From NCBI GenBank assembly GCA_031441445.1, contig GCA_031441445.1_4353.1: a stretch of DNA of 24,085 bases; one strand, written 5' to 3'. How positions within the stretch are numbered: the first letter of the stretch is position 1; each line of letters starts with the position of its first letter. The notes below the pieces were generated by a model that searched no databases, was not told where the DNA came from, and was given only the letters and a program-made list of their open reading frames with translations. This DNA is from a phage. Shown here piece after piece: positions 7,249 to 11,461 of the stretch. A program made the translations under genes and the position numbers.

Positions 7249-7277
7249 AATATAATAGGGTCGTAGGTAATAGTCAA
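7249..7277 (-). promoter_or_regulatory. sigma70-like promoter (TTGACT-N17-TATATT) for the minus-strand early operon
   Basis: -35 is rc of 7272-7277, -10 is rc of 7249-7254, 17-bp spacer; about 30 nt upstream of ATG 7215. No operator palindrome in this copy. Confidence 0.5.
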
Positions 7278-7299
7278 CTAGTCATTGCAGAAAATAGAT

Positions 7300-7331
7300 A
7301 AAAAAAATCCCGGCTGGGTCAGGGCCGGGAT
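7300..7331 (-). terminator. rho-independent terminator (minus strand)
   Basis: 8-bp stem ATCCCGGC / GCCGGGAT (7307-7314 / 7324-7331) followed on the minus strand by eight U (A-run 7300-7307 on plus). Confidence 0.6.
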
Positions 7332-7370: not shown

Positions 7371-7399
7371 AGTATCGTCGGATTAGTCTTAGGTGTCAA
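7371..7399 (-). promoter_or_regulatory. sigma70-like promoter (TTGACA-N17-GATACT) driving the candidate sRNA
   Basis: Perfect -35 (rc of 7394-7399), 17-bp spacer, -10 GATACT (rc of 7371-7376). Confidence 0.35.
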
Positions 7400-7526: not shown

Positions 7527-7559
7527 GCAAAATAAAACCCGGATTCGCGGTCCGGGTTT
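7527..7559 (-). terminator. rho-independent terminator after the lysis cassette
   Basis: 9-bp stem AAACCCGGA / TCCGGGTTT (7535-7543 / 7551-7559) with a 7-nt loop, followed on the minus strand by UAUUUUG; 38 nt downstream of the endolysin stop. Confidence 0.6.
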
Positions 7560-7596
7560 ATGGAGATGCAAGCACAAGCGGCGTATGACGATTATA

Positions 7597-8085
7597 TCAG
7601 CCTTTCACCGCGCGTCCAATAGCAACCGCCTCTTGCCACGGCTTACCGTCGAACAATGCCAGCCGCCCGGCGGTACGGCGGCGCAGGCCGAGTAACGGTT
7701 TGCCGTTCTGGTTGATGAACAGCGCCAGCTTAGCCCGCAGCGTCGCGATGTCACCAGAGCGCAGTGCCTTACCTGTACCGGTAGTAGCTGCGATAACGCC
7801 AGCGCCTGCGTTAAACACAAGGTCACACACGGCGTCGAACTGAGCCTGTGTCAGTGAGTGATGCGCTGCAGCGTCAACGGCGGCTACGGCCTTAGCCATA
7901 TCGCGATTGAGTAGCAGAAGACCCTGGCCGGGCGTGATGGTCTGCCCGGGCTTAACGTCTGGCCCGTAATGCCCGTAGCCAATAGTCAGGTACTTCTCGG
8001 CGGGTGTAGCACGATACGCAGTTCCCCGGAAGCCCTCGAACTCGGCACAAAAATGTAAGCCGTTATCTGAAATGTTTCGAGACAC
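7597..8085 (-). CDS. endolysin, GH24 lysozyme-like (T4 lysozyme / lambda R family)
   Basis: 162-aa ORF with N-terminal catalytic-region motif EFEGFRGTAYRATPAEKYLTIGYGH; GTG start at 8085 with a strong AAGGAGG RBS 8 nt upstream; follows two membrane-protein genes. Confidence 0.75.
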   Translation of the reverse strand: MSRNISDNGLHFCAEFEGFRGTAYRATPAEKYLTIGYGHYGPDVKPGQTITPGQGLLLLNRDMAKAVAAVDAAAHHSLTQAQFDAVCDLVFNAGAGVIAATTGTGKALRSGDIATLRAKLALFINQNGKPLLGLRRRTAGRLALFDGKPWQEAVAIGRAVKG

Positions 8086-8344
8086 GCTTATGTCCTCCTT
8101 TCGACTGGTAATGCAGCCACGACTGACGAATCTGTCGCAGCGCTACCAGGGTAATTAATGTTTCCGGCAGCGTCGGGGACATGCTGCCCTGTAACAAGTG
8201 GATACAACCGGCGGCGCAGACAATAGCTGTCAGGATATAGAGCACCCGGCCAAATAGCCCGTCGTCAACGCTGGGATGATACACATTAAACAGCGATGTG
8301 CCTCCGATTGCCAGCATACCGCAGAACCAGAATAACTCATTCAT
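8063..8344 (-). CDS. lysis-associated membrane protein (holin/antiholin-like, two predicted TM segments)
   Basis: ORF track 8063..8437; the internal ATG at 8344 (MNELFWFCGMLAIGG...) has a GAGGAGG RBS and overlaps the upstream stop by 8 nt; basic C-terminus. Confidence 0.45.
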   Translation of the reverse strand: MNELFWFCGMLAIGGTSLFNVYHPSVDDGLFGRVLYILTAIVCAAGCIHLLQGSMSPTLPETLITLVALRQIRQSWLHYQSKGGHKRVSKHFR

Positions 8345-8645
8345 CCGGGCCTCCTCGACGTGCGATGTATTCTCCGGCGACAATGCCAGAGAGACGGGAA
8401 TAAATTGGCATCCAGAGAATAGCAATGATGAATCCAAGGCCCGCTATTTCGCGTTCACCTGCGATACCGAACCATTGAGCGGCGAGAGGCGCACCGAATA
8501 CGGCGCACGCAAAGCCAGTGGCGAGAAAACAGAGAGCATCGACAGGGCCGGTAATAGTGGCTTTGTGTTGCCGTAAGCCTATTACCCCACCAGCTAATGC
8601 GGCAGCGAGAAGCCACCCCGTCTCTGTTTCAGTAAATTTATCCAA
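8337..8645 (-). CDS. holin-like membrane protein (three predicted TM segments)
   Basis: 102-aa ORF with hydrophobic segments GWLLAAALAGGVIGL, ALCFLATGFACAVFGAPLAA and IAGLGFIIAILWMPIY and a charged C-terminus; TTG start at 8645 with GGAGG SD 7 nt upstream; first gene of the lysis cassette. Confidence 0.55.
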   Translation of the reverse strand: MDKFTETETGWLLAAALAGGVIGLRQHKATITGPVDALCFLATGFACAVFGAPLAAQWFGIAGEREIAGLGFIIAILWMPIYSRLSGIVAGEYIARRGGPDE

Positions 8646-8650
8646 GATGA

Positions 8651-8690
8651 ATCCTCCAGGTGCGTATTAAGTATGCAGTAACTGGAGGAT
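8651..8690 (-). promoter_or_regulatory. RNA hairpin sequestering the holin Shine-Dalgarno
   Basis: Perfect 9-bp inverted repeat ATCCTCCAG (8651-8659) / CTGGAGGAT (8682-8690) with a 22-nt loop; the minus-strand 3' arm contains the holin GGAGG SD. Confidence 0.45.
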
Positions 8691-8720
8691 AGCACGGTTA
8701 GGAATTATCTTAATAACGGT

Positions 8721-9014
8721 TTATTTATGACGCCAGATGTATTGTCGTCTCTGCGGTTTAGTCGGAATATCATCGTATCCGAGCGATTTCCAGTAATTAA
8801 ATAACCGATTAGCGATTGCCGCGCGTTCCTGTGTTTTAAACTCTCCTAGATTCACGGCCTTTCCGTTCTGGAATCCACAGGCGCGGATAGCTTTACGCCG
8901 TTCTTGTATCTCTGGGTACAGCACGTTACGGCGACGCTTGTGTATACGTGTCTTCGCTCTCGGTGACAGCGGCGCAAGGCCGCTTCGTTTCAGGATGTCA
9001 GTTGCTAACGACAT
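8721..9014 (-). CDS. hypothetical basic protein (possible DNA-binding)
   Basis: ORF track 8721..9059; the internal ATG at 9014 overlaps the upstream stop; K/R-rich (RAKTRIHKRRRN); weak resemblance to AP2-type DNA-binding domains, not diagnostic. Confidence 0.4.
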   Translation of the reverse strand: MSLATDILKRSGLAPLSPRAKTRIHKRRRNVLYPEIQERRKAIRACGFQNGKAVNLGEFKTQERAAIANRLFNYWKSLGYDDIPTKPQRRQYIWRHK

Positions 9015-9791: not shown

Positions 9792-9820
9792 ATAGTAGCC
9801 TATTCTATCTTAGTGTGCAA
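9792..9820 (-). promoter_or_regulatory. early promoter cassette (TTGCAC-N17-TACTAT, minus strand) with operator palindrome
   Basis: -35 is rc of 9815-9820, -10 is rc of 9792-9797; palindrome AATAG-TAGC-CTATT at 9791-9804 overlaps the -10; whole cassette to the ATG is homologous to the one at 11022-11090. Confidence 0.5.
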
Positions 9821-11024: not shown

Positions 11025-11058
11025 TTCTAAATTCCTTATGTCTCGTTTCGATAAGTGA

Positions 11059-11087
11059 ATAGTAACCTATTATGTTGGGGTGTGCAA
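11059..11087 (-). promoter_or_regulatory. early promoter cassette (TTGCAC-N17-TACTAT, minus strand) with operator palindrome
   Basis: -35 is rc of 11082-11087, -10 is rc of 11059-11064; palindrome AATAG-TAAC-CTATT at 11058-11071. Confidence 0.5.
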
Positions 11088-11129
11088 GAGAATAGTTACG
11101 TTGCCGTTGTGATTCTTTCGTTTCTTAAA

Positions 11130-11185
11130 AGAGTACGCAACGCAGTGGGTGGGCGTTAGCCCACCCCAGCGGAGTGAAGTACTCT
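11130..11185. other. nested inverted-repeat element in the divergent intergenic region
   Basis: Inner perfect 8-bp GC-rich stem GGGTGGGC / GCCCACCC (11147-11154 / 11159-11166, GTTA loop) nested in an outer 7-bp stem AGAGTAC / GTACTCT (11130-11136 / 11179-11185). Confidence 0.4.
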
Positions 11186-11421
11186 CTACCTTGCTCACGG
11201 CAACTATAGAAACTTTTAATTATCAGTGACTTGGATATTTAGGCGGGATTAACAATAGACTTTGACCCTTCCGAAAGCGTCAGCGGAACTACACTCAAGT
11301 GCCTAATGGCACGCGTTGCGTTCCCTGCCGCTCCGCGGTCGCTTGCGATATCTCACAAGCTCAGTGAAGCTTAGCATATTTTCAAGTAAAAGTCAATACC
11401 AGTAGCATCTTTTGTATTTTA

Positions 11422-11461
11422 GTAACTTTGCGTGGTGTTTTGGTTGCTTTTACAAAGTTAC
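11422..11461. promoter_or_regulatory. perfect 9-bp inverted repeat upstream of the AlpA-like gene
   Basis: GTAACTTTG (11422-11430) / CAAAGTTAC (11453-11461) separated by 22 bp, 41-80 nt upstream of ATG 11502. Confidence 0.35.

Follow-up and report, generated by a model that had tools for sequence, protein, structure and literature searches.

The Lysis Cassette

The whole stretch of DNA analysed here, referred to as the window (24,085 nucleotides), comes from a phage that, judged by its sequence, is a virulent, Kagunavirus-like coliphage, the region sharing 85–91% DNA identity with Kagunavirus phages (Guernseyvirinae). Three lysis genes lie on its minus strand. The first, holin 1 (8337–8645, −), starts at a TTG codon and encodes a protein of 102 aa with three transmembrane domains that belongs to phrog_2359. 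It is followed by holin 2 or an antiholin partner (8063–8344, −; 93 aa; phrog_2508) with an ATG start after GAGGAGG, which shares 8 nt with holin 1 and 23 nt with the endolysin. The endolysin itself (7597–8085, −; PF00959) starts at GTG 8085–8083 behind the Shine–Dalgarno (SD) sequence AAGGAGG (8100–8094), and the cassette ends in a predicted intrinsic terminator (7535–7559, −). An earlier note on this DNA had omitted holin 2, a second holin gene with a strong SD between holin 1 and the endolysin. The same three lysis genes are annotated in the GenBank records of relatives, and a TMHMM note in the Schulenburg record assigns three transmembrane domains to the first gene and two to the second.

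By profile comparison, both holins match PHROG holin families; for holin 1, residues 1–95 fall on positions 4–97 of phrog_2359 with an E value of 2.5e-29, and a Pfam search of the same protein gave no match. The endolysin matches PF00959 (GH24 phage lysozyme) with 97.5 bits over residues 15–138, which takes in the N-terminal catalytic region and hence calls for the GTG start, and its alignment with PDB entry 8hp8 spans residues 1–161. No Rfam family was matched by the holin leader or by the rest of the window, in which a tRNA search likewise found none.

Downstream of the endolysin on the same strand, a series of promoter- and terminator-like elements was observed at 7591–7618, 7535–7559, 7371–7399, ca. 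7299–7331 and 7249–7277. The first pair past the endolysin consists of TGGACG-16-TGaTATAAT with a terminator ca. 30 nt later, the second of TTGACA-17-GATACT followed by a terminator-like hairpin with T8, and gene 7215 (−) has TTGACT-17-TATATT ahead of it. From the first two pairs, two small RNAs, each ca. 50–70 nt long, might arise; alternatively, these pairs could form a checkpoint for antitermination ahead of the packaging and structural genes.

Start Codons

The TTG codon 8645–8643, which the earlier note had taken as the only plausible start of holin 1, holds up well. In-frame upstream starts are absent, the first in-frame ATG is codon 79, and TTG is kept in all 42 Kagunavirus relatives examined (42/42). 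Moreover, the resulting N-terminus, MDKF, can be aligned position by position with the ATG-initiated MDKL of the Dhillonvirus holins and falls on position 4 of the phrog_2359 profile. The GTG start of the endolysin, also put forward before, is borne out as well: an 8-nt spacer separates it from AAGGAGG, GTG and GGAGG are conserved in ca. 50 relatives, and the N-terminus of the crystallised homologue 8hp8 reads VSRNIS. The codon lies 15 codons ahead of the catalytic motif FEGF. Together, holin 1 and the endolysin account for two of only three non-ATG starts among the 30 genes of the window (rough gene list). Internal start codons are used in some GenBank records, namely those of Bas72 (L001, 2794–3186; endolysin of 130 aa) and TU03 (L043, 1237–1509; holin 1 of 90 aa); these drop the conserved N-termini and are probably misannotations that result from the non-ATG starts.

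A comparison of lineages (L041, L058, L101, L104 and the window) reveals an inverse relation between the start codon and the strength of the SD. The SD duplex amounts to −9.3 and −8.6 kcal/mol in the two lineages with TTG, compared with −3.9 to −5.7 kcal/mol in the three ATG lineages scored, which looks as if total initiation strength were held moderate.

The Leader Hairpin

Ahead of the TTG codon, the holin 1 mRNA contains two complementary arms that form a hairpin. Its 5′ arm, the anti-SD arm (8682–8690, −; ATCCTCCAG, = AUCCUCCAG), is separated by a 22-nt loop (8660–8681, −) from the 3′ arm (8651–8659, −; CTGGAGGAT, = CUGGAGGAU), which includes the SD sequence GGAGG (8657–8653). A spacer of 7 nt, ATTCATC, then leads to the start codon. 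This perfect 9-bp stem with the SD in its 3′ arm had been described in the earlier note, with all coordinates correct. Folding of a 71-nt leader RNA returned exactly the same stem, with an energy of −16.7 kcal/mol and a z score of −3.1; none of 200 shuffles folded as well (0/200). The SD forms a duplex of −9.3 kcal/mol with the 16S tail, and its opening costs 8–11 kcal/mol on long transcripts of the window. Since the hairpin is located wholly in untranslated RNA, ribosomes will not melt it. The proposed occlusion of the SD is supported, and the hairpin is conserved among relatives.

Inverted repeats of 9 bp with separated arms occur ca. nine times in the window, so that such a repeat is not rare per se. 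Likewise, the cost of opening the holin 1 ribosome binding site (RBS) in its −110 to +60 context ranks only 7th among the 30 genes and is no outlier; RBS-opening energy was thus rejected as an uninformative mark of special regulation. The evidence above chance level lies in the comparative signal, i. e. in the invariance of the arms and the recurrence of hairpins, rather than in the repeat or its opening energy. Compared with intrinsic terminators, the window hairpin has a 22-nt loop and a tail, UCAUCUUG, from which a U-tract is absent, and a terminator scan based on a simple consensus did not call it. Two other candidates were discarded, namely an RNase III site in the leader, for which the stem is too short, and a leader peptide from GTG 8695, which is without an SD.

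Elsewhere in the window, a second perfect 9-bp inverted repeat, GTAACTTTG / CAAAGTTAC (11422–11430 / 11453–11461), has its arms 22 nt apart like those of the holin hairpin and sits where the rightward gene block begins.

Conservation within Kagunavirus

Conservation was assessed in 42 distinct Kagunavirus sequences. The leader (−65 to −1) has a major-allele frequency of 0.970 with 28% variable columns, compared with 0.977 and 15% at codon position 2 of holin 1 and 0.742 and 84% at codon position 3. The 3′ arm is invariant, and a single column varies in the 5′ arm, where A is replaced by G to make a G·U pair. Unexpectedly, the loop is also conserved, with a major-allele frequency of 0.985. Common polymorphisms are found at three positions only, which correspond to position 4 of the −35-like TTAAGA (−65), the spacer (−53) and the 'n' of cgTGnTATCCT (−47). 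At this 'n', the 42 sequences are split evenly between C (21) and G (21), with TG and TATCCT invariant. Across 121 GenBank phages, the leader is at least 88% identical.

The conserved block begins ca. 70 nt upstream of holin 1 even where the upstream gene differs. That gene, which adjoins the leader (8721–9014, − in the window; also compared in relatives such as L005 and L009), is of two unrelated kinds among Kagunaviruses and encodes either an HslV-like peptidase or a phrog_9632 protein of 97 aa, with a mosaic junction ca. 70 nt ahead of the holin start. As the leader block is kept despite these different neighbors, the lysis cassette travels with its own leader.

Within the loop, CUUAAUA (8671–8665) is complementary over 7 nt to UAUUAAG (8715–8709), which overlaps the −35-like hexamer. 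The A/G polymorphism at −65 retains this pairing and L028 converts it to G–C; in L002, both partners of one pair are changed to a mismatch. On this mixed evidence, the two segments could form a pseudoknot in read-through RNA.

Hairpins in Other Lineages

Homologues of holin 1 in Jerseyvirus, Dhillonvirus and two other lineages form a hairpin in the corresponding position, whose sequence is different and co-varies. The shared layout comprises a −10-like site, the 5′ arm, the loop, a 3′ arm with an SD-like G-run, which is present in every lineage, and a start codon 5–11 nt further on. The G-run itself precedes the start codon by 6–11 nt. In Dhillonvirus, the leader reads gcgTGaTATAGT-CCCAGTGAG-loop-TTACTGGGAC-TTTTTT-ATG with TGaTATAGT as the −10-like site, and L057 is a variant of it with an extra C/G pair. 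The leader of L058 is caTGtTAATAT-CCCCCGTG-13-CACGGGGGAT-TTTATT-TTG, and that of KW1E_UTAR is TTGACC-17-TACTAT-TCCCCGGA-7-TTCGGGGA-T8-ATG, in which a canonical −35/−10 pair replaces the TGn motif. Jerseyvirus SETP3, whose ORF53 is the holin 1 homologue (hhalign probability 94%, same PHROG), has the leader aTGtTAATCTCCGAAGGT-6-ACTTTCGGAGAT-TTTTTATT-GTG with TGtTAATCT-CCGAAGG... at the hairpin edge. Finally, L116–L120 share the leader cTGaTAATCTCCGTATGG...CTATACGGAG-11 nt-ATG, with a stem over GGAG and an absent U-tract. In the homologues of Dhillonvirus, L058, KW1E and SETP3, the features of terminators were found, i. e. a short loop and a U-tract after a G+C-rich stem, and the hairpin abuts the start codon. 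In the WF5505 record, the Dhillonvirus hairpin is annotated as a terminator.

When the arms are aligned across lineages, seven of the nine pairs change on both sides. In total, 93.9% of cells pair, a value from a hand-anchored alignment that was fitted to each lineage's own hairpin and leans towards structure, so that it shows the recurrence of hairpins with different sequences and not an independent prediction; shuffles and slid alignments remained far below this value. A metagenome scan returned only Kagunavirus and Dhillonvirus and no further lineages, and the layout is absent from the distant homologues L060–L062 and Wc4-1.

Promoter-like Sites

The 5′ arm of the hairpin coincides with a promoter-like site that had escaped notice in the earlier note. 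This extended −10-like element, TGcTATCCT (8686–8694, −), consists of TG 8694–8693 and the hexamer 8691–8686, and the anti-SD arm begins with its last five bases. Located 16 bp upstream of the hexamer is a putative −35-like hexamer, TTAAGA (8708–8713, −), which is a weak match (4/6) and reads TTAGGA in about half of the relatives.

That we infer a promoter here is based on a rough position-weight scan and the comparison across lineages. With a rough sigma70 weight matrix applied to the 130 nt upstream of each holin, the highest-scoring site lies directly at the 5′ arm or partly within it in all leader types (11/11); in the other lineages, an equivalent element TGnTAnnnT, or the −35/−10 pair of KW1E_UTAR, abuts the hairpin. 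Shuffled sequences contain an equal or better site in 1–3% of cases for Dhillonvirus, L057, L058 and KW1E and in 9–75% for the Guernseyvirinae leader types, the window itself being at 28%. A simple consensus scan called neither a promoter nor a terminator in the holin leader. As the bases ATCCT are forced by complementarity to the SD, only TGnT represents independent evidence in this lineage. The non-consensus middle bases of the hexamers TATCCT and TAATCT in the Guernseyvirinae are what would be expected of positions that also pair with the SD. An alternative −10 hexamer, GATAAT (8709–8704), which would place the whole hairpin in the RNA, was rejected with a score of 5.7 vs. 8.9 and no counterpart elsewhere.

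At the usual sigma70 spacing, transcription is predicted to start at 8679 (A, −), i. e. at the 7th nt after the −10 hexamer and 3 nt past the 5′ arm; the predicted starts in other lineages fall within the last 1–3 nt of the arm. A transcript that starts 7 nt after the hexamer would be without the full 5′ arm, and hence the stem could not form, which applies to every lineage tested. In the window, the RBS-opening cost is calculated to be ca. 6–9 kcal/mol from the predicted start compared with 10–14 kcal/mol when the 5′ arm is present, and across lineages it drops from 14–28 to 3–11 kcal/mol for transcripts starting at the predicted site.

A further promoter-like site, TTGCAC-17-TACTAT, is predicted upstream at 9792–9820 (−), with a second copy at 11087–11059. 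Transcription from 9820–9792 would cover the genes from 9759 to 8721 and enter the holin leader, and the interval from 9759 to 8645 is free of predicted terminators. With another host-type site, TTGACT-17-TGcTAAGCT, at 11396–11368 (−), the phage is clearly predicted to use host-type promoters elsewhere in the window.

The sites at 9792–9820 and 11059–11087 (−) are copies of a repeated motif, CTTGCACA-N9/10-AATAGG(C/T)TACTATTCA, with a palindrome AATAG..CTATT over the −10 region that may be an operator for early-gene shut-off; the repeated motif (TTGCAC-17-TACTAT) agrees with the 'phage promoter' consensus (PHIRE) described for fBC-Eco01. The site at 11396–11368 is followed by ca. 300 nt of structured, ORF-free DNA before the first leftward gene (11024). 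This stretch of the divergent control region (11025–11396, −) may give rise to a long leader or a non-coding RNA.

The literature found on these phages consists of in-silico promoter lists and one coarse RNA-seq time course, which reports no start sites and leaves out the holins. In the sole transcriptome paper, the lysozyme is assigned to the middle class at coarse resolution.

A Possible Transcript-Origin Gate

With a probability of roughly one half, we propose that the holin leader acts as a gate that distinguishes transcripts by their origin, as in T4 gene e, rather than as a constant brake. The 75-nt leader would then be a composite element, in which one and the same DNA stretch provides the anti-SD arm and, for a weak promoter with an extended −10 like that of galP1 (TGcTATCCT), the −10/discriminator region. 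Read-through RNA from the promoter at ca. 9820–9792 would contain both arms, so that the 9-bp stem would fold, GGAGG would be buried and holin 1 would stay silent. In the sister genera, the U-tract on the hairpin probably also terminates such read-through transcripts. RNA starting at ca. 8679, from which the 5′ arm would be absent, would possess an open leader of 34 nt and be translated moderately owing to the TTG codon. Holin output and the lysis clock would thus follow the weak proximal promoter, not the strong upstream transcription, and an effect on lysis timing is plausible.

The stable hairpin, the cross-lineage covariation and the position of the best sigma70-like site at the hairpin edge in 11 of 11 leader types count in favor of such a gate. 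Against it, the promoter score is weak by itself in Kagunavirus and Jerseyvirus, where 28–75% of shuffles score at least as well somewhere, a sigma70 promoter without regulation would already fire when infection begins, and the model does not require the degree of conservation seen in the loop and the putative spacer.

The main competitor builds on the interpretation of the earlier note and assumes that a functional internal promoter does not exist, that all holin 1 mRNA is hairpin-bearing read-through, and that SD occlusion together with the TTG start results in low holin levels and a long lysis delay. Of this, the occluded SD and the TTG start stand; a throttling of all holin mRNA is not established, as the 5′ arm overlaps TGnTATCCT. 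Such a permanent restraint would agree with the conserved hairpin and TTG, with the weak score of the proximal promoter in this lineage, and with the strong promoter-like site upstream from which no predicted terminator separates the holin. The combination of TTG with a strong SD and of ATG with a weak one, as if initiation were kept moderate, would also fit. However, it leaves unexplained why an invariant TGnT with a freely varying n lies beside the stem and why the best sigma70-like site is found at the 5′ arm in every lineage, including TTGACC-17-TACTAT of KW1E. Moreover, in Dhillonvirus, L058, KW1E and SETP3, where a terminator-like hairpin abuts the start codon, read-through alone would supply very little mRNA for an essential cassette. 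Given the overlap of the 5′ arm with a conserved extended −10 element and the recurrence of the layout in every related lineage, discrimination between transcripts is likelier than a constant brake, which we consider rather doubtful.

Conceivably, the hairpin is mainly a terminator or attenuator of the upstream operon that has decayed in Kagunavirus and pairs with the SD only as a consequence of its position beside the start codon. The short loops and U-tracts of the sister lineages and the terminator annotation in the WF5505 record point in this direction, yet the window hairpin with its 22-nt loop, without a U-tract and without a call by the terminator scan does not, and L116–L120 have kept the stem over GGAG without a U-tract. 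A properly spaced SD-like G-run in the 3′ arm of every lineage, as well as the invariance of both arms within Kagunavirus, which is contrary to decay, make this reading distinctly unlikely. Very unlikely, in our view, is a factor-dependent element, in which a phage or host protein would bind the repeat or the loop and the upstream block, or the loop and UAUUAAG would form a pseudoknot, to switch on the holin late. It would account for the conservation of loop and spacer beyond the needs of promoter and stem, and the 7-nt complementarity between loop and upstream block, kept by A/G at −65 and by G–C in L028, is in line with it. Nevertheless, the stem keeps its position but has wholly different sequences between lineages, which is more in keeping with RNA pairing than with a protein operator; L002 has a mismatch at one proposed loop pair; and since two unrelated kinds of gene are found upstream, there is no conserved candidate regulator beside the element.

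An extended version of the transcript-origin gate, which we regard as unlikely, would be a triple-overlap element in which ca. 15 bp serve as −10/discriminator, terminator 5′ arm and anti-SD at once. Conserved over Guernseyvirinae, Dhillonvirus and allied coliphages, it would act as a transcript-origin filter that frees the lysis clock from early transcription, and in Kagunavirus the loop and the upstream block would add a timing layer based on a pseudoknot or a bound factor.

Comparison with Known Systems

In phage T4, the RBSs of the genes e (lysozyme), soc, 49 and I-TevI are inhibited by a hairpin, the 5′ strand of which derives from the DNA of the late promoter, as shown experimentally (McPheeters et al. 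1986; reviewed in PMC3014915). Similarly, the SD or start of a lysis gene would here be buried on transcripts from upstream, and a promoter-like site is located in the DNA of the 5′ strand, the transcripts of which are here predicted to be without the inhibitory arm. In contrast to T4, the motif is the sigma70-like TGnTATCCT and not the gp55 late promoter TATAAATA, and the gated gene is a siphovirus holin instead of an endolysin. Furthermore, the hairpins of the sister genera also resemble intrinsic terminators, and the T4 case was shown by experiment, whereas the present one is deduced from sequence.

The lambda S gene, to which the leader had been likened before, reportedly contains a dual-start motif, S107/S105, with an upstream stem-loop, sdi (Blasi, Young and co-workers). 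The sdi structure sets the ratio of the two products without occluding the SD, and the late promoter of lambda is located far upstream and depends on Q antitermination. The likeness is real insofar as an RNA structure lies at the initiation region of a holin gene, with a predicted effect on output and lysis timing in the present phage. Beyond this it is loose, since a single TTG (M-D-K) takes the place of the dual start. A dual-start holin of the lambda S type was consequently rejected, the next in-frame start after the one TTG being codon 79. Likewise, lambda-like Q antitermination was discarded, as in Dhillonvirus and KW1E the stem directly follows the −10 hexamer, which leaves no room for an upstream start.

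Extended −10 promoters of the galP1 type (TGnTATGGT) work without a good −35 element. The putative holin promoter resembles them in the combination of TGn with a TATnnT hexamer, the non-consensus middle bases and the poor −35; unlike in galP1, the 3′ half of the hexamer is constrained by pairing with the SD. With rho-independent terminators, the hairpins share a G+C-rich stem directly after the upstream gene and, in Dhillonvirus, L058, KW1E and SETP3, the U-tracts. The window hairpin differs from them in its 22-nt loop, its lack of a U-tract and a 3′ arm that is the SD of the next gene.

Implications

Taken together, the element is best filed as a promoter-in-hairpin translational gate, a type already known from T4, with the sigma70-type motif and the holin as target being new. 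If the model is true, it explains both why the −10 hexamers deviate from the consensus and why the first lysis gene starts at non-ATG codons. The leader would then also be a compact part of ca. 50 nt that ties expression to transcript origin, and TG 8694–8693, T 8691, the stem and the TTG codon would offer handles for the engineering of lysis time. Kagunavirus, Jerseyvirus and Dhillonvirus are among the commonest E. coli and Salmonella phage isolates proposed for therapy and biocontrol. In these unrelated siphoviruses, which use the host sigma70, the strategy of T4 gene e would have evolved or been retained.
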